Shown here: positions 6,565-37,923 of the stretch, one piece after another
How the letters are laid out: each line of letters begins with the position of its first letter
Position numbering within the stretch: the first letter of the stretch is position 1
Assembly (NCBI GenBank): GCA_050952645.1
Contig: JBMNLI010000010.1
Span: 192,001 to 256,000 of the forward strand
Source: Bdellovibrionota bacterium
GTDB taxonomy: Bacteria > Bdellovibrionota_C > UBA2361 > CAKMMH01
Reading direction: 5' to 3'
DNA length: 64,000 nucleotides
Made by a program: the position numbers and the translations under genes
The notes under the pieces: model-generated
Database searches by the model: none
Told to the model about the DNA's origin: nothing
Seen by the model: the letters and a program-made list of their open reading frames with translations, nothing else

Positions 6565-7800
6565 ATGGAAAATAATATACTAATTCGCAGAATAGAAAAA
6601 ATTAAAAAATCTTTAAGCAAGCTTTCTAGCAATGCTACTTTACTTTTATCGAGTGCCCCAGAAATCATAAAGTCTCGTGATATAACTTTTGATTTTAAAC
6701 AAGACACTAATTTTTATTATTTTACAAACTCACAAATAAAAAACGCTGTGCTTTTAATAAAATCAAATAGTGATGCTCCCATCTTGCTTTCACCTAGCCA
6801 AAGTAAAGAAGACATATTGTGGCATGGAGAAAGTGAGTCGGCAAAATCTTTAGCAAAAAAAATCGGTGCCGTTTACAAAGACTGTGAACTTAATGAGAAA
6901 GACATTATCTCTTATTTAAAAGAGTGCAATACTCTATGTTATAGCTCTTATAAATATTCTTTATCTAATAAAGTAGCTAAGTTTTTATTAAAAGAAAACA
7001 CTTCTACATTAGAGCGATTAAAGCTTCCATATAAATTTATAAATCAAGACTTTATAATATCACCGCTAAGACAAATAAAAGAAAAAGGCGAAATAGAAAA
7101 TATAAAAACCGCTGTAAAGATTACGCTCAATGCCATAGAGGAATTAAAAAACTTTTTACGCCCTGGGCTTACCGAACTCGAAGTTAAGCACTTTTTTGAA
7201 AATGAAATAAAAAAACAAGGAGCAAGCATAGCGTTTGATACTATTTGCGCAAGTGGTAAAAATGCAGCAACGCTTCATCACACTAGTTCTAATAAAGTGC
7301 TTAAAAAAGGAGAAATGCTTCTTATCGATTGTGGTGCTGAATATAATATGTATGCGGCAGATATTAGTAGAACGCTTCCAGTTTCTAGCACGTATTCTCC
7401 TATTCAAGAAATACTTATAAATGGAGTCAAAAAGGCTAAGCGTGATGCTATAAATAAGGCCGTTGTAGGTGCAAAATTTAAAGATGTGCAACAAGCTTCA
7501 GAGCTAGCTATTATAGAGTTATTAAAAGAGCTAAAAATTTTAAAAGGAAATAAGCTAAACATTTTAAAACAAAAATTACATAAAGAATTTTATCCTCACG
7601 GCGTTGGGCACTCTCTTGGGCTTGATACTCACGACTTAGGGAAACTTTTCGGCGATACTATTTTAAAAGAAAATATGGTTATTACGATAGAGCCCGGAGT
7701 TTATTTTAGTAAAAAGATTAACGATATCGTGCCGTGTGGAGTTAGGATAGAAGATGATATTATAATTAGAAAGAAAGAGTCTAAAGTGATAGAGTTTTAA
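6565..7800 (+). CDS. pepP: Xaa-Pro aminopeptidase (M24B)
   Basis: FKQDTNFYYFT N-domain, LIDCGAE, YAADISRT, HGVGHSLGLDTHD, TIEPGVY, GVRIEDD. Confidence 0.92.
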   Translation: MENNILIRRIEKIKKSLSKLSSNATLLLSSAPEIIKSRDITFDFKQDTNFYYFTNSQIKNAVLLIKSNSDAPILLSPSQSKEDILWHGESESAKSLAKKIGAVYKDCELNEKDIISYLKECNTLCYSSYKYSLSNKVAKFLLKENTSTLERLKLPYKFINQDFIISPLRQIKEKGEIENIKTAVKITLNAIEELKNFLRPGLTELEVKHFFENEIKKQGASIAFDTICASGKNAATLHHTSSNKVLKKGEMLLIDCGAEYNMYAADISRTLPVSSTYSPIQEILINGVKKAKRDAINKAVVGAKFKDVQQASELAIIELLKELKILKGNKLNILKQKLHKEFYPHGVGHSLGLDTHDLGKLFGDTILKENMVITIEPGVYFSKKINDIVPCGVRIEDDIIIRKKESKVIEF

Positions 7801-7807
7801 ATAAAAT

Positions 7808-7969
7808 GGTTCTTTGACGTTTTAAGAGGGCTTAGAAAAATTGTTTTTTTAGGGGTTAGCTTAAAAGAAAATCGGAGCTAGTTAAAGCTTGCGGAGATTT
7901 TCTTTTGGGCTTCGTCGGGGTGAGTGATACTTCTTAAGGTCTAAAACCTACCTTAAAACGTGAAGAGCC
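7808..7969. mobile_element. ISL3-type MITE, copy 1 (162 bp)
   Basis: Termini GGTTCTTTGACGTTTTAAG / CTTAAAACGTGAAGAGCC; internal hairpin AAAAGAAAATC...GATTTTCTTTT; left flank AATAAAAT. Confidence 0.8.
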
Positions 7970-8079
7970 AGTTTATTTTAGTAAAAAGATTAACGATATC
8001 GTGCCGTGTGGAGTTAGGATAGAAGATGATATTATAATTAGAAAGAAAGAGTCTAAAGTGATAGAGTTTTAAATAAAAT

Positions 8080-8241
8080 GGTTCTTTGACGTTTTAAGAG
8101 GGCTTAGAAAAATTGTTTTTTTAGGGGTTAGCTTAAAAGAAAATCGGAGCTAGTTAAAGCTTGCGGAGATTTTCTTTTGGGCTTCGTCGCTGAGTTATAC
8201 TAATCTTAAGGTCTAAAACCTACCTTAAAACGTGAAGAGCC
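8080..8241. mobile_element. ISL3-type MITE, copy 2 (162 bp)
   Basis: Same termini and hairpin as copy 1. Confidence 0.8.
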
Positions 8242-8351
8242 AGTTTATTTTAGTAAAAAGATTAACGATATCGTGCCGTGTGGAGTTAGGATAGAAGATG
8301 ATATTATAATTAGAAAGAAAGAGTCTAAAGTGATAGAGTTTTAAATAAAAT

Positions 8352-8457
8352 GGTTCTTTGACGTTTTAAGAGGGCTTAGAAAAATTGTTTTTAGGCTTCG
8401 TGGAGTTGGTGATACTAACTCTTAAGGTCTAAAACCTACCTTAAAACGTGAAGAGCC
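8352..8457. mobile_element. ISL3-type MITE, copy 3 (106 bp, internal hairpin deleted)
   Basis: Same termini; flanked on both sides by 8-bp AATAAAAT (8344-8351 and 8458-8465). Confidence 0.8.
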
Positions 8458-8520
8458 AATAAAATCAAGCCGTTAGAACTTTTCATAAAACTAAATAGAA
8501 TAAAATAGAAATACTATAAG

Positions 8521-8604: not shown

Positions 8605-9786
8605 ATGATAGAAAGGAATATTTCTAATAAATTAGTAGAGCTTGCTAACCTAGTGCCCGTCATAACTATTATTGGCCCTAGGCAATCTGGGAAAACGACT
8701 TTAGTAAAAAACTCTTTTCCAGAATACAATTACGTCAATTTAGAAGATCCTGCAAATAGGATGTTTGCAAAAGAAGATTATAGAGGTTTTTTTGAAACGT
8801 ATAAAGAGCCGATAATTATAGATGAAATTCAAAGAGTGCCAGAGCTTCTTTCCGCAATACAAGTTATGGTCGATAATGATAGAAAAAAAAATGGTCGCTT
8901 TATACTTACAGGAAGCCATCAACCTAGTTTGCAAAGAGGAATTGCGCAATCCCTAGCAGGTAGAACTAGCATCTTAACCCTACTTCCTTTAAGTATGAAT
9001 GAACTTGCTAAAGAAGGACTATTAGAGAAATTATCTATCGACAAATTACTTTTAAAAGGCTTTATGCCAGAACTTTATAGAAAAGGAGCTAGAACTCCCG
9101 TCGTTTATTATCGCGACTATTTAAATACTTATGTTGAAAAAGATTTGCGAGAAATGTTAGAGATTAAAAACTTAGATAAGTTTTTAAGATTTTTAACTTT
9201 ACTTGCAGGCAGAGTTGGGCAGGTAGTAAACTTATCTTCCATGTCTGGGGATGTAGGAGTTTCATCTACGACTTTATCCGATTGGCTATCTGTGCTTGAA
9301 GCCTCTTATATAGTTTATAAATTAAAACCATATTTTTCTAATATTACTAAACAACAAATTAAGTCGCCAAAAATTTATTTTACAGAAATTGGCTTAGCAA
9401 CGTATCTTTTAGGGATAGAAACTGAAAATCAGGCAACACGAGACCCGCTACGAGGAAATCTTTTTGAAAATTTAATCGTTTCAGATATTCTAAAGTCTAG
9501 GCTAAATGAAAATCTAGACCCGAACATCTATTACCTAAGAACTGCTAAGGGGACTGAGATAGATTTAATTTTGAAAAAAAATGAAAAACTTTATCCATTT
9601 GAAATAAAATCATCGATGACGCCTAATAAATCATTTTCAAGACATCTATCATCTTTTACTAAAACACATGAGAATGCTACAAACCCTAGAATCATTTACC
9701 AAGGACAATCTTATCCGCAATTTTGCGGTGTTGAATACGTTAATTATAAAGAATTAAATAAATTAGCATCACTGTTAGCATTATAA
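8605..9786 (+). CDS. AAA+ ATPase (AAA_14 + DUF4143 family)
   Basis: GPRQSGKT Walker A, IIIDEIQ Walker B, FILTGS, SLAGR, KSPKIYF, GNLFEN, EIDL...EIK C-terminal motif. Confidence 0.9.
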   Translation: MIERNISNKLVELANLVPVITIIGPRQSGKTTLVKNSFPEYNYVNLEDPANRMFAKEDYRGFFETYKEPIIIDEIQRVPELLSAIQVMVDNDRKKNGRFILTGSHQPSLQRGIAQSLAGRTSILTLLPLSMNELAKEGLLEKLSIDKLLLKGFMPELYRKGARTPVVYYRDYLNTYVEKDLREMLEIKNLDKFLRFLTLLAGRVGQVVNLSSMSGDVGVSSTTLSDWLSVLEASYIVYKLKPYFSNITKQQIKSPKIYFTEIGLATYLLGIETENQATRDPLRGNLFENLIVSDILKSRLNENLDPNIYYLRTAKGTEIDLILKKNEKLYPFEIKSSMTPNKSFSRHLSSFTKTHENATNPRIIYQGQSYPQFCGVEYVNYKELNKLASLLAL

Positions 9787-9851: not shown

Positions 9852-9908
9852 AAAAAAAAAGCTGACTTAAAAACTTAACCTCGCTAAAAGTTTCATCTTA
9901 AGTCAGCT
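9852..9908 (-). terminator. Intrinsic terminator (minus strand)
   Basis: AGCTGACTTAA...TTAAGTCAGCT stem followed by a T-run on the minus strand. Confidence 0.7.
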
Positions 9909-10158
9909 CAGGCAAACAAAAGAAACTTGATTTACAAGTCCCTATTTTAACGGACGTTGCTTGCCCCGCCCTTTCTCTGTTTGTTTGTATCTGCACAATA
10001 GCTATGATGAAAAACATCTTAAAAAGGTTTCAATTATTATCGATTTTAATATTAAGCTAAAAGGTATGAATGTGTGTGTGCGGTAAATAGGAGGAAAACT
10101 TTTAGCTTTTAAATCGTATTAAAAGAAAAACCAAAATAACACGTGTGCATCTACTCGG
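9852..10158 (-). ncRNA. Candidate sigma54-dependent small RNA (~300 nt)
   Basis: Lies between a consensus -24/-12 promoter and an intrinsic terminator; three stem-loops; no RBS-led ORF. Confidence 0.5.
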
Positions 10159-10168
10159 TAGTAAAATA

Positions 10169-10184
10169 AGCAAGCATCGTGCCA
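10169..10184 (-). promoter_or_regulatory. Sigma54 (-24/-12) promoter
   Basis: Minus strand reads TGGCACGATGCTTGCT, matching TGGCACG-N4-TTGCW. Confidence 0.75.
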
Positions 10185-10310
10185 CAAGAAGATTTTTGAT
10201 GTAATATGCTGAAATTATTAAAGTTTTTATATTTTATTAAAGATTTTTAATTTATTTAAGTAAACAACGGCAAAAATTTCCCAAGTTTTTTTGACATATT
10301 AAAAGGGCAT

Positions 10311-10331
10311 AATGACGTATAAATGACGTAT
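10311..10331. promoter_or_regulatory. Tandem direct repeat, candidate enhancer-binding-protein site
   Basis: AATGACGTAT twice at 11-bp period, ~130 bp upstream of the sigma54 promoter, with an AT-rich stretch between. Confidence 0.4.
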
Positions 10332-10381: not shown

Positions 10382-11701
10382 CTAGCTCTCAAGTAGCCAA
10401 GTTATAATATTTAGAGATTTTATCCCATCATAGCAAGTCTCCATGCCTGTATTTAATGAGAGAACTATTTTTTCATGATTGTCGCTAATTTTTCGCAAAG
10501 GTGCTAACTCTCTCTTACGAACTCTTTCCTCTGCCATCGATTCCGTAACTTGAATATACTGCTTGCTATCTGCTTTAGTAGCTATAAAATCTACTTCAAA
10601 ATTATCTATTTTTCCGATCGCCACATCGAAACCACGCCTTAGCAATTCAAAATAAATTACATTTTCTAAAGAGCGACCACTATCTCTATCCCTAAATCCT
10701 AAAATGAAATTTCTTAATCCTATATCGACTATATAATATTTACCAAGAGTACGAAGAAAATCTTTTCCTTTAATGTCGAATCTTTTTATTTCATAAAAAA
10801 AATACGATTCTAATAATGCACTTACGTATGCCTGAACCGTGTGGGCACTCGGCGTTCCTTTTCTTTTACCATTTTCGAGCATACCTTCATTTACGAGAAC
10901 ATTCCCTATGGAAGAAACTGAAATATTACTACCGATATTATCCGCAAGAAACATTACTATCTTTTTAAATAAAAACCAATCTGTAATTTGCCTTTGCCCT
11001 CTTATCTTCTCTCTTTCTAAAATGTCTCTTACTATTACCGTAGAGTATATACCTTCTAATAAAACTAGCGCTTTTTCTTGATCTAATCCGACATCTACAA
11101 TTCCTGGCATTCCACCAAAACGCATATATGCTTTAAATAAATCTTTAAGTTCATAATGTTCTTTATTTTCATCATAAACTTGTTTTCTTATATCCCCTAA
11201 AGCACTCCTTGTTTCTCTCATTTCAAAACCATGAAAATATAAAAACTCGCTAAATGAAAGTGGAAACATTTTAATTTCTATGCATCTTCCAGATAAATAA
11301 GTTGCATACTCCGAGGAAAGTAGATATGCGTTAGAACCAGTAATGTAAATATCACAATTAAAATCCACTCTAAATGAGTTAATCGCATCTTCCCATTTTG
11401 GAACACGCTGAATCTCATCGAAAAACAAATACATTCTCTTATTTGGAACGATAAGTTTTTTCACGTATTCATAAAGCTCATCGCTATTCATTTTTTTAAA
11501 TACATAAGACTCAAAGTTCATCTTGACAATTTGTTTATCTGAAATGCCATTGTCTTTTAAATAAGAAATCATTAATTTAAGCAAGCTAGATTTTCCGCAT
11601 CTTCTTATACCAGTTATCACCTTTACTAGCTCTGTATCTTTAAAAGCTATTATCTTATTTAAGTATAAGTCTCTTTTTTTAAGTTTACGTGTATTATTCA
11701 T
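10382..11701 (-). CDS. AAA+ ATPase (AAA_14 + DUF4143 family)
   Basis: GIRRCGKS, LFFDEIQ, IYITGSNA, YLSGR, KYYIVDIGLRN, LENVIYFEL, EVDFIA. Confidence 0.9.
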   Translation of the reverse strand: MNNTRKLKKRDLYLNKIIAFKDTELVKVITGIRRCGKSSLLKLMISYLKDNGISDKQIVKMNFESYVFKKMNSDELYEYVKKLIVPNKRMYLFFDEIQRVPKWEDAINSFRVDFNCDIYITGSNAYLLSSEYATYLSGRCIEIKMFPLSFSEFLYFHGFEMRETRSALGDIRKQVYDENKEHYELKDLFKAYMRFGGMPGIVDVGLDQEKALVLLEGIYSTVIVRDILEREKIRGQRQITDWFLFKKIVMFLADNIGSNISVSSIGNVLVNEGMLENGKRKGTPSAHTVQAYVSALLESYFFYEIKRFDIKGKDFLRTLGKYYIVDIGLRNFILGFRDRDSGRSLENVIYFELLRRGFDVAIGKIDNFEVDFIATKADSKQYIQVTESMAEERVRKRELAPLRKISDNHEKIVLSLNTGMETCYDGIKSLNIITWLLES

Positions 11702-12610: not shown

Positions 12611-14230
12611 ATGGAACGCTATATGCTTATCAATGCAGTTCATCCAGAAGAATGTAGAATTGCGATTATCGAGGGGAACAAGCCTATTGAGCTTGAAATA
12701 GAATCAAATGCTGGAAAAAAATTAAAAGGAAATATTTATAAGGCGAAAATCGCTAGAGTTGAGCCTAGTTTACAAGCGGCATTCGTAGATATAGGTGCTG
12801 AAAGAAATGGATTTTTGCAAATAAACGATATTCACCCATCGTATTTTAAAAAGGGTTATACTAAAAAGAAATCCGTTTCTCAAATAAAAATTCAAGATGT
12901 CGTTGAAACTGGACAAGAGGTAATAGTGCAAGTAGTAAAAGAAGAGCGAGATTTAAAGGGCGCTACATTAACTACCTATCTTTCACTCCCAGGAAGATAC
13001 ATCGTCTTAATGTTAGGAAATGATAAAGGCGGAGTTTCTAGAAAAGGAAGTGCAAACGAAAGAAGCAGGCTAAAAAAACTTACTCAAGAATTGAAACTTC
13101 CAGATGGAATGGGAATTATAATAAGAACCGCTGGGCTTGATAGATCTCATAGCGAACTTTCTAGAGACTTATCGATACAATTAGACCTATGGAACAAGAT
13201 TCAAAATAGAGCTAAAGAATCCTCAACCCCTACTATCCTTTATACAGATGGCGATTTTGCAACGAGAGTTATTAGAGACTACTTTACCCCAGCAGTAAGA
13301 GAGATAGTTATAGATAACCCTAGCACTTATGAGTTAGTAAAAGAGTTTGTGCAAGAGGTTATGCCACGCTATCGCTCTAGAGTAAAATTGTATAACCATC
13401 CAGAGCCTATTTTTACGCATTATAATATCGAAGATAGCGTAATTGAAACTTTTGAAAGAGAGGTAAAACTCCCTTCGGGTGGAGCTATCGTAATAGAACC
13501 AGTCGAAGCGTTAGTTGCTATCGATGTAAACTCTGGAAAGGGTACCGATGGCGAAGGAATTGAAGATACGGCCTTTAGAACTAACATGGAAGCTGCCGAG
13601 GTGATAGCATCCCAGCTTAGGCTAAGAGACTTAGGCGGACTTATAGTAATAGATTTTATAGATATGCTCGACAAAAAGCATCGCATAGAGCTTGAAAAAA
13701 AGATGCTAGAAGTTATAAAGGAAGACAAGGCGAGAATTGAAATAGGCACTCTTTCAAGATTTGGGCTTTTAGAAATGTCTCGCCAAAGGATACGTGCTTC
13801 TCTAGCTAGTCAAAGCCATATTACTTGTCAAAGTTGTAAAGGGCTAGGAAAAATAAGAAACCCAGAACTTATAGCGCTTGAGGTATTAAAGAAAATTCAA
13901 GCAGCCGTTATTTTAGGAAAAGTTTCTTTAGTGCAAGCTAGACTTTCGACTGCTCCTACGGTATTTCTTTTAAACAACAAAAAAAGAGAATTAACTAGAC
14001 TAGAAGCAGAATATGAGGTAAGAATTTTAATCGTTCCAGATGCGAGACTTCGAGTTGACGAGTACGAGTTAGTGCTAAAAGCTCATGAAGATGATGATAA
14101 TGGCAAAAAGCATTTAATCGATAGCAATAAAGCTAAAGAGTTAACGACAAAAAGCAAAAGCACATTTAAAAATAAAAGAAAAACACTTACTAAGAAAAGA
14201 CGTTTCCCCACTAAAAAGGCAGAAAAATAG
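12611..14230 (+). CDS. rne: Ribonuclease E/G family
   Basis: GNIYKAKIARVEPSLQAAFVDIG S1 domain, AIDVNSG, DLGGLIVIDFIDM, CQSCKG Zn link; short basic tail. Confidence 0.9.
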   Translation: MERYMLINAVHPEECRIAIIEGNKPIELEIESNAGKKLKGNIYKAKIARVEPSLQAAFVDIGAERNGFLQINDIHPSYFKKGYTKKKSVSQIKIQDVVETGQEVIVQVVKEERDLKGATLTTYLSLPGRYIVLMLGNDKGGVSRKGSANERSRLKKLTQELKLPDGMGIIIRTAGLDRSHSELSRDLSIQLDLWNKIQNRAKESSTPTILYTDGDFATRVIRDYFTPAVREIVIDNPSTYELVKEFVQEVMPRYRSRVKLYNHPEPIFTHYNIEDSVIETFEREVKLPSGGAIVIEPVEALVAIDVNSGKGTDGEGIEDTAFRTNMEAAEVIASQLRLRDLGGLIVIDFIDMLDKKHRIELEKKMLEVIKEDKARIEIGTLSRFGLLEMSRQRIRASLASQSHITCQSCKGLGKIRNPELIALEVLKKIQAAVILGKVSLVQARLSTAPTVFLLNNKKRELTRLEAEYEVRILIVPDARLRVDEYELVLKAHEDDDNGKKHLIDSNKAKELTTKSKSTFKNKRKTLTKKRRFPTKKAEK

Positions 14231-36030: not shown

Positions 36031-37923
36031 ATAGGGTAGAGCGAGGGCTATACCCTCTCCCTCCCGTCGCACCGTACGTACGGGTCTCGTATACGGCGCT
36101 CCATTAATATAATATCAAGTAATACTCAGGTAATACGTCAAAGGGTCGATTAAACCAATTCGTTCCTTTGTTTTACGCCCCAATATTTTAGGGCTTAATG
36201 CATAATTCACTACGTACCACGAACTGCGTCTATACCAGCCGAGTCTGCTGTTAGCAACCTTATAGATTTCTTCATTTCTAAAATTGCAACCAAGCATTCG
36301 GTTCAATTTCTTAAGATTTAGATAGATTCGTCTCGGCAATTTCCACTGTTTAAGTATTATAACCCTCACTTTGTGTCTAAGCCATTGACCATATTTATCT
36401 ATAAAAGTCTTAAGAGTTCCTATCTTATAATAGTTTATCCAACCTTTAATTAACCAGCTTAGCTGTTGAAATGTCGAACCTAACGTTCGTGCCATTGCCT
36501 TCCGTCTACAAAGAATTTCTCTAGTTTTATCATAGAGTTTTCGTTTGCGATCTTCAGCAGGTTTACATTTCCAAGTTTTATACCCACTCTTCCAGTAGGT
36601 AAAGCCTAAGAAAGTGCTTTCCGTCGGCCTAGAGATTTTACTCTTACTTGAATTAATTTTAAGTCGTAGCTTACGCTCCAACCAACTCGCAACGGACTTC
36701 ATTACTCTATTAGCAGCCTTTTCACTTCTAACAAATATATTACAGTCATCGGCATATCTAACAAACTTAAGTCCTCTTGCTTCCAGTTCCTTGTCGAGCT
36801 TATCAAGGTATATGTTAGATAATACTGGGGATAATGGACCTCCTTGCGGAACTCCTTTCTCACTTACAGTAAACAATCCATCTTCCATTATACCAGCTCT
36901 TAAGAACTGTCTTATCAATCGTAGTGTCTTCGCATCTTTGATGCGTTCCCTGATTATCGAAATTAATTTGTCGTGATTAACAGTATCAAAATATTTCTCT
37001 ATGTCTAGGTCTATAACCCAATCATAGCCTCTTTTCAAGTACTCAAGAGTTCTATATACTGCTAGATGGCAATTCCTTCTAGGTCTAAAGCCATAGCTAC
37101 TATTACTAAAATACTTTTCGTATCCGCGTGCTAGTATTTGCGCTACCGCTTGTTGAATTACCCTATCTACTACTGTAGGTATTCCTAAAGGTCTCATCTT
37201 ACCATTAGCTTTAGGTATATACACTCTCTTAACTGGACTCGGCTTATAATTCCCTTCACGTATCTGAGATTTTATCTCTTCTCTGTGAACGGCAAAATAG
37301 TCTTCAAGCTCATCTACTGGCATATCATCTACACCAGATGCACCTTTATTTCGCTTAACAGCCTTTATAGCCTCATCTATATTTTTGTCTGATATAATTA
37401 GTTCAATCAATTCCACCTGTTGCTCCTCCCTCTGTTTGTAAAGCTACTAGAAAACACCCCCTCTATCTTCTGCCCCCACAGGTTACGTTCCTGTTTGTTA
37501 GGCATATCTTCAATTTCGGACTCTTCTAGCCTTGCTTACAGTGATTCACAATATATTAACGTTCAACCCTTCCTTGAGTGGTGTCTCAAGTACTATGGTA
37601 TCAACTGACTTCCAGATATAAGCTTTATATCGCACGTGCATAGCACGCTATCTGGACCTCCGGGGTAAGGCATAGTTCTTTCACCAGACAACCTCCAGAT
37701 TTACTCGTTTGGTTTTACGTTTGTCTTTAGGGCTTCGGTTTGTAGCGCAACCTCACCCACCATTTAGCCTTGTATCTGGTTTCTGTTCGTAGGCTCCTTG
37801 GTTTTGATCCGCCACTTCCTTCACTCTAACATTACTGCTTCGAGCTTGTGGCATCACTACACTTGGTGACAACTACCCGTGACGGGACTTTCACCCGCTA
37901 GAACTATGTCGTGCCCGGCACAC
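36031..37923 (-). mobile_element. Complete group IIC intron (1893 nt)
   Basis: 5' GTGTGCCGGGCAC; domain V GAGCGCCGTATACGAGACCCGTACGTACGGTGCG with CGC triad; 3' end CCCTAT; both boundaries fixed by empty-site copies reading GGGC|TTCGT. Confidence 0.93.
36115..37416 (-). CDS. ltrA: Group II intron reverse transcriptase/maturase (class C, no endonuclease domain)
   Basis: NKGASGVD, RPLGIPTVVDR, SYGFRP, GVPQGGPLSP, RYADD, maturase GWINYY; no HNH. Confidence 0.96.
   Translation of the reverse strand: MELIELIISDKNIDEAIKAVKRNKGASGVDDMPVDELEDYFAVHREEIKSQIREGNYKPSPVKRVYIPKANGKMRPLGIPTVVDRVIQQAVAQILARGYEKYFSNSSYGFRPRRNCHLAVYRTLEYLKRGYDWVIDLDIEKYFDTVNHDKLISIIRERIKDAKTLRLIRQFLRAGIMEDGLFTVSEKGVPQGGPLSPVLSNIYLDKLDKELEARGLKFVRYADDCNIFVRSEKAANRVMKSVASWLERKLRLKINSSKSKISRPTESTFLGFTYWKSGYKTWKCKPAEDRKRKLYDKTREILCRRKAMARTLGSTFQQLSWLIKGWINYYKIGTLKTFIDKYGQWLRHKVRVIILKQWKLPRRIYLNLKKLNRMLGCNFRNEEIYKVANSRLGWYRRSSWYVVNYALSPKILGRKTKERIGLIDPLTYYLSIT

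Follow-up and report, generated by a model that had tools for sequence, protein, structure and literature searches.

What does the minus strand between two AAA_14/DUF4143 ATPase genes of this Bdellovibrionota genome encode, and on which transcripts could its product act? A first-pass annotation had read the locus as a small RNA gene with a sigma54 promoter and an exposed loop. The following features were assigned in the window, i.e., the whole stretch of 64,000 nt that was analysed:

9852..10158, minus strand: predicted RNA of about 306 nt, start predicted near 10158
10184-10169, minus strand: sigma54 -24/-12 promoter consensus TGGCACGATGCTTGCT (sequence match; rpoN in the genome)
9987..10151, minus strand: domain 1, a long interrupted stem bearing the loop
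10054..10108, minus strand: closing helix and open loop (stem 10108-10099 / 10063-10054)
10098-10064, minus strand: 35-nt loop with CCUCCU, (CA)n tract and 3' flank; seed 1, complementary to flagellin leaders
9913..9983, minus strand: domain 2 junction, with the second stem 9983-9972 / 9925-9913
9980-9971, minus strand: ACAGAGAAAG, invariant within the family and complementary to half of a flagellin 3'-UTR element
9879..9886, minus strand: seed 2, UAGCGAGG, complementary to CCUCGCUA of flagellin 3' UTRs
9852..9909, minus strand: intrinsic terminator hairpin and U tract
10311..10331 (copies 10311-10320 and 10322-10331), listed for the minus strand: tandem 10-nt repeat; AATGACGTAT is the plus strand reading
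10269..10296, minus strand: putative activator site, GTCAAAAA (kept in the family) plus an imperfect GG.AA..TT.CC palindrome
8605..9786, plus strand: AAA_14/DUF4143 ATPase, convergent neighbour (neighbourhood not conserved)
10382..11701, minus strand: second AAA_14/DUF4143 ATPase, upstream neighbour (neighbourhood not conserved)
12611..14230, plus strand: RNase E/G gene, near the RNA gene in 4/4 family genomes in either orientation

The promoter, the stems, the loop and the terminator proposed in the first-pass annotation were all recovered at these positions, and the two short ORFs of 13 and 39 codons indeed lacked a Shine-Dalgarno sequence. The main terminator was not called by a simple terminator scan, which flagged a weaker site at 9943-9921 instead, because the loop of the main terminator exceeds the 3-8 nt limit of the scan. 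Among homologues with a called terminator the RNA measured 169-306 nt.

The sigma54-type promoter, for which the presence of rpoN had been named as a check, found support. The genome encodes rpoN and three sigma54 activators, which received no name at NCBIfam cut-offs, as well as FliA, FliW and CsrA. The promoter was kept in four homologues that were found without requiring it (three family genomes and a metagenome contig), where it lay outside the matched sequence. A flagellin operon and a flgE-like gene of the same genome also carry a sigma54 promoter consensus; the assignment of the latter as a hook gene is a reading of its sequence. The tandem repeat, which had been taken as the enhancer, is present, but the sequence given for it was the plus strand reading. 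It is not retained in relatives, and without conservation it is unlikely to be an enhancer by itself. The GTCAAAAA motif and the imperfect palindrome, 40-130 nt upstream, appear to be better enhancer candidates. The palindrome occurred in 11 of 26 upstream regions versus a shuffle mean of 0.4, with a pattern that was tuned on these same regions. The activator-site pattern was absent upstream of all 18 sigma54 flagellins, so a timing shared with the RNA is at most presumed.

The predicted RNA folded with a z value of -3.5, none of 100 shuffled sequences was as stable, and the unpaired probability of the loop was about 1.0, in line with the exposed loop that had been proposed. In 20 of 24 homologues the strand read from the promoter folded more stably than the opposite strand. 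No ORF with a ribosome site was common to the homologues, 17 of 24 of which were devoid of any ORF of at least 10 codons; this favoured an RNA over an mRNA, as the first reading had it.

A BLASTN search with the window sequence in 40 relatives detected the RNA in all three genomes of the same family (E 1e-27 to 1e-36) and in none of the 37 others; it missed the distant homologues. A metagenome scan added one contig that carries the RNA. A pattern of promoter plus CACACAC matched 34 of 91 genomes of the order. When the pattern comprised promoter, (CA)n and GCGAGG, 28 of 124 genomes of the class were matched and a reversed control gave 0; 25 of these matches were true homologues and 3 were false on reading. 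None of the 33 class genomes outside the order matched this three-part pattern. A 16-nt loop pattern gave 93 stretches in a genome collection, 2 being family copies and the rest chance. Altogether homologues were present in 29 of 91 genomes and 12 of 21 families of the order, a total that includes G019, G050, G027 and G085 beyond the three-part pattern. Promoter and tract are conserved by construction in 27 of the 29, since the search patterns required both. The G027 homologue, found without the promoter requirement, has the promoter, and the G085 homologue has an intact -24 element and no canonical -12 element. Independently of the first pattern, GCGAGG followed the loop in 24 of 26 homologues, often in duplicate, and 20 of 26 had CCUCC ahead of the tract; terminators were called for 23 of 26. 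CCUCC was missing in six homologues, and those of G008, G018, G032 and family f12 are without it.

Matches in G023, G046, G049, G010, G057, G065, G067, G075, G077, G081, G012 and G039 were non-homologous on reading, as were second matches in G004, G009, G017, G030 and G050. Second matches in G014 and G045 were left out of the reading, and the loci of G019 and G048 are cut by contig ends. G088 was left out of the count as uncertain: its locus (L283, G088:C372) has a sigma54 promoter, TAGCGAGGTA including GCGAGG, a terminator and no (CA)n tract, and is possibly a divergent homologue. In locus L198 (G032:C56) the RNA gene is present in two tandem copies, each with promoter and terminator.

The window RNA matched no family of Rfam 15 (best E 0.73, all hits far below gathering), a check that the first-pass annotation had suggested, and for six homologue loci and two flagellin loci Rfam reported only a group II intron. 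Our literature search found no paper on such an RNA in Bdellovibrionota; the sRNA tables in the supplements of Bdellovibrio transcriptome papers lay outside this search and could bear on novelty. Judged from the sequences, the RNA is a real, undescribed family.

Besides a free-standing RNA gene, two other roles had to be weighed: the locus might act in cis on the downstream gene, as a leader or attenuator, or it might yield the mRNA of a small peptide. The terminator is followed within 100 nt, in many families, by the start of a co-oriented gene that is often NAGPA phosphodiester glycosidase-like, and one frame is free of stops in two homologues. The downstream gene, however, varies within the family and is convergent in G000, G009 and G038 (3 of 24), which argues against a cis leader. 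A coding function is opposed by the lack of a common ORF with a ribosome site, and the two copies in G032 each possess their own promoter and terminator. We give these readings next to no weight.

The helix encloses a tract-bearing open loop in 24 of 25 folded homologues, and the helix sequences are unrelated across families. Each of the eight innermost closing positions showed 4-6 standard pair types, with 4 of 192 cells unpaired; these pairs come from folds of single sequences, a procedure that favours paired columns. In the MAFFT/RNAalifold alignment domain 1 was misaligned and double changes appeared in only 2 of 41 pairs. Alignment A3 failed on the stems as well, which is why the pair types come from single-sequence folds. 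A promoter of its own, a terminator, the absence of a conserved ORF and an exposed conserved seed, the marks of a trans-acting base-pairing sRNA, were all found in the sequence. With a structure conserved without conservation of sequence and with no common ORF, the idea of a base-pairing sRNA with an exposed loop is well supported by these comparisons.

The first-pass annotation had suggested a target scan. The predicted targets are flagellin RNAs, and the RNA has a putative second seed. A self-search revealed that 18 nt of the loop are perfectly complementary to positions -21..-4 of the long flagellin G000:C14:66151. A perfect complement of 18 nt is expected 0.0005 times per genome. In relatives this site of the long flagellin is not kept. 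A duplex scan of 1539 called genes placed this flagellin at rank 2, a gene for an 80-aa protein at rank 3 and flagellin C7:33941 at rank 16; a ribosomal-protein region held rank 1, and the remaining three flagellins came only at ranks 802-1242. Outside the RNA gene the sole perfect TGTGTGCGGTAA lay in a flagellin leader in 3 of 4 family genomes. The C7-type flagellin has a sigma28-like promoter, a leader of 150-190 nt that starts with TGTGTG, and the ribosome site TCAAGGAGG. The conserved target is probably this C7-type flagellin.

Among the fetched flagellin loci, 14 of 19 genomes had TGTGTG at a distance of 134-179 nt upstream of a flagellin whose promoter is sigma28-like; of 18 sigma54 flagellins, none had it. 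Outside the family these counts cover part of the flagellin loci of each genome, so missing sites are not absences. A separate pattern for the leader layout matched 28 of 91 genomes, mostly of the same families as the RNA; it also picked up the G001 leader, located at the end of a contig. Co-occurrence of RNA and leader site is imperfect: the leader site was found without the RNA in G012, G029, G043, G046, G049 and G086 (genomes 70-94% complete), and several RNA-bearing genomes gave no leader site. In family f8 all 36 genomes have flagellins, and the patterns used gave no true match there for the RNA or the leader site, a joint lack that favours a link between the two.

The (CA)n tract with its flank is complementary to the first 5-40 nt of the sigma28-type flagellin leader, and CCUCC(UUGA) is complementary to the ribosome-binding site of the same flagellin, about 150 nt further on. 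The CCUCCU loop had been proposed as the seed that pairs with ribosome-binding sites. CCUCC is kept in 20 of 26 homologues, and the main seed appears to be the (CA)n tract. New beyond the first-pass annotation is this predicted complementarity of one loop to both the 5' end and the ribosome-binding site of a sigma28-like flagellin.

The 3' flank of the tract and the 5' flank of the leader site change together between families and remain complementary: UUCA/UGAA in family f1, UCAGC/GCUGA in f2, UGCUCA/UGAGCA in G008 and CUUCCA/UGGAAG in G030. After removal of the repeat tract, p was 0.0001-0.0016 by partner permutation and 0.00005-0.001 by composition shuffle for 15 pairs representing 10 families, ranges that span 18 one-per-family choices among families that are not fully independent. 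Four held-out flagellin pairs gave p 0.02, 0.03, 0.007 and 0.076, and 4/4 agreed in direction; G084:C165 was not part of this test as it has no flagellin downstream, and in the G084:C299 flagellin the site lies too near the promoter for the flank test. Individual pairs often gave a weak signal: those of G017, G018 and G040 had none in the flank, and of 15 whole-loop comparisons only 3 placed the cognate loop at the top. By these tests, loop and leader covary in their variable flanks, across 10 families. A loop that matches the leader of a late flagellin gene, and varies along with it, makes it likely that the RNA controls flagellin choice.

The same matches could arise if TGTGTG/CACACA and CCTCGCTA were operator sites in DNA common to the RNA gene and the flagellins, with no pairing of RNAs. 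A repressor could bind at the TGTGTG, which lies just downstream of the sigma28-like promoters, and the reverse orientation does occur in leaders. It was found, however, as CACACA in the sense orientation, in only 5 of 102 leaders versus 21 with TGTGTG, and the bias in 3' regions was 24 versus 2. In addition, the tract is held in a loop closed by compensating helices, and the lineage-specific flanks remain complementary. Shared operators are therefore a very improbable explanation.

Our preferred reading, to which we assign a probability of about two in three, is that a free-standing sigma54-type RNA gene encodes an RNA whose loop pairs with the leader of the late sigma28-type flagellin and holds back its translation. 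Its transcription would fall in the sigma54 (hook-stage) wave, at the same time as that of the sigma54 flagellin and the flgE-like gene. It would then clamp both leader sites, or the 5' site would serve as a toehold. The sigma28 flagellin would be delayed, and the filament would be built in order. A Watson-Crick run of 7-12 nt covered the ribosome-binding site in 12 of 15 pairs. In models of the free loop cofolded with the leader, which ignore the topological limit of a closed loop, occlusion of the ribosome site was at least 0.94 in 10 of 15 pairs. Three of the 15 pairs were without useful pairing at the ribosome site; with CCUCC missing in 6 of 26 homologues, this means that repression is not universal.

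The pairing could also have the opposite outcome, if binding at the 5' end stabilised the flagellin mRNA or opened a structure that hides its ribosome-binding site. The best conserved and covarying site is the 5' end of the transcript, about 150 nt from the start codon, the ribosome site was mostly paired in models of the free leader (unpaired probability <0.5 in 10 of 15), and the homologues without CCUCC would fit as well. An example of activation of some flagellins by 5'-end pairing is described for Vibrio FlaX (bioRxiv 10.64898/2026.08.28.747715). Against this, CCUCC is kept in most homologues and extended to CCUCCUUGA, matching UCAAGGAGG of the flagellin, in 11 of 26, and with the loop bound the modelled accessibility of the ribosome site was raised in only 1 of 15 pairs. 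We consider activation unlikely.

In 4/4 family genomes an invariant 20-nt element immediately precedes the terminator of flagellin G000:C17:270327, and two pieces of it are complementary to ACAGAGAAAG and UAGCGAGG in the RNA. Its core, CCTCGC(T/A)A, occurred in 24 of 78 flagellin 3' regions versus 2 in reverse. For the complement of the core the count was 10 of 102 flagellin leaders versus 0; the core also follows flagellins in four more genomes. Family f2 has switched both partners (UUGCGAGG in the RNA, CCUCGCAA in the 3' UTR), a single event from which G042 of f2 differs. Covariation at this second seed was not significant (p 0.03-0.77, median 0.15), and GCGAGG was only partly unpaired in the models (0.11-0.98). 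On the simplest reading, 3'-UTR RNAs set free from late flagellin mRNAs would act on the leaders of other flagellins and pair with the present RNA too. That the GCGAGG seed pairs with them, one RNA titrating the other as feedback, is less certain.

Long flagellin 3' UTRs that end in CCTCGC(T/A)ACT plus a terminator were observed order-wide (G000:C17:269170-269470, minus strand; L175-L178, L186-L188, L196). Probably they make up another undescribed family, this one of 3'-UTR RNAs, and leaders of other flagellins have sites complementary to them. The leaders of the second flagellin in G002 and G003 (L130, L129) carry ACACACATT in the same sense as the loop of the RNA, next to a GCGAGG hairpin that resembles domain 2; this leader and the RNA may share an origin.

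The RNA might instead act mainly as a decoy: with its GCGAGG hairpin it would mimic flagellin leaders and titrate either an RNA-binding protein or the 3'-UTR RNAs, the loop match being secondary. Within the family, domain 2 resembles the leader hairpin of flagellin G000:C17:270327, the two-piece complementarity to the 3'-UTR element of this flagellin had a modelled gain of -16 to -22 kcal/mol in 4/4, and GCGAGG is kept almost throughout. A decoy leaves the covariation of loop and leader unexplained, and we regard it as improbable. Sequestration of CsrA came into question as well, because the host has CsrA and FliW and the flagellin leaders have 2-3 ANGGA sites. RNAs of the CsrB/RsmY type, which sequester CsrA, carry many ANGGA motifs in loops. 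The present RNAs have only 0-4 such motifs each and 13 of 26 have none, so they are not CsrA sponges of that type.

Repression by loop pairing, the reading that we favour, would extend to further targets in this genome, likely the long flagellin and the conserved 80-aa gene. Within the family, the A/G change of the loop has its counterpart at the ribosome site of this 80-aa gene in G000, G001 and G002. The long flagellin (G000:C14:66151-68073, L132) has 640 aa with FG-GAP repeats in the middle of the protein, and similar long flagellins are numerous in relatives. The 80-aa protein (G000:C14:14317-14559; L169, L290-L319) is present in 81 of 91 genomes of the order and in none of the 4 genomes without flagellin. 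It has no Pfam family and no usable Atlas match, and the leader of its gene often contains GTGTGTG.

Bacteria with several flagellins must time the synthesis of each, and a solution by RNA was demonstrated in Vibrio. FlaX is described there as a sigma54-dependent RNA of about 265-400 nt, which arises by RNase E cleavage in the 3' UTR of the sigma54 flagellin, is stabilised by ProQ, and pairs at three sites of the sigma28 flagellin leader including the ribosome site, leading to repression (PMC11879080). It is also described to activate other flagellins and to pair with the 3'-UTR RNA FlaY, a proposed sponge; further RNAs arise in Vibrio from the 3' UTRs of late flagellins (bioRxiv 10.64898/2026.08.28.747715). 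The present RNA has a sigma54-type promoter consensus and, like FlaX, complementarity, here predicted, to several sites of a sigma28 flagellin 5' UTR. By prediction it works like FlaX, yet without the 3'-UTR origin and without ProQ. It has its own promoter and no adjacent flagellin gene in the loci examined, and Hfq (PF17209) was found in none of 4 genomes and ProQ (PF04352) in none of 5 (80-94% complete). As FlaX is described, the RNA is further set apart by one large loop that carries both sites and by a host from another phylum.

By analogy, FlaX would be a closer precedent than Pxr of Myxococcus xanthus, which the first-pass annotation had cited. Pxr remains a fitting example: it is encoded as a free-standing sRNA behind a predicted sigma54 promoter plus enhancer region, its first loop is functional, and its host lacks hfq (PMC5684412). 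Its description, with three simple stem-loops (SL1 and SL2 conserved), myxobacterial hosts, control of development and targets given as under investigation, differs from the present RNA in fold and host. FlmE (CJnc230) of Campylobacter jejuni is an RpoN-dependent sRNA that derives from the flgE mRNA by processing; the genes it represses are flgM and that of one more regulator (PMC11187230). It shares with FlmR (CJnc170), and by prediction with the RNA studied here, the position of an RpoN-type, base-pairing sRNA in the flagellar hierarchy; the action described for FlmE is not on flagellin leaders. In E. coli UhpU, MotR, FliX and FlgO are described as sigma28-driven, UTR-derived and Hfq-associated (PMC10578931). 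They likewise add an RNA layer to flagellar synthesis, and a 3'-UTR origin of the FliX type resembles that of the putative partner RNAs here.

A wider proposal is an order-wide circuit free of Hfq and ProQ that orders the flagellins independently of that of Vibrio, with one loop clamping a 5' end and a ribosome site 150 nt apart, and a second seed that titrates, or is titrated by, flagellin 3'-UTR RNAs targeting other flagellin leaders. We put this forward tentatively and consider it somewhat doubtful as a whole. If true, control of sigma28 flagellins by a sigma54 RNA with 3'-UTR feedback would have arisen more than once, in uncultured Bdellovibrionota as well as in Vibrio, and could operate without known chaperones. 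The family offers named targets, exact predicted pairing sites and natural compensatory variants, and can therefore be tested at once in an E. coli two-plasmid reporter.

Some other features were noted in the window and genome. At positions 7800-8460 of the window the end of the aminopeptidase P gene is repeated by a tandem duplication of about 270 nt, and a short dispersed repeat in this region is also present after other genes. The segment 2418-6089 encodes a protein of 1223 aa that contains a very long serine tract and ends in a cysteine-rich tail; it matched no Pfam family and has paralogues on other contigs. The upstream regions of G000:C7:135224 and G000:C17:144671 are near-identical, with a sigma54-like consensus followed by CCAA repeats. 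A group II intron with an ORF lies at 36031-37841 of the window, apparently inside a flagellar or type III export cluster, and its terminal motif recurs about 10 times in the genome.
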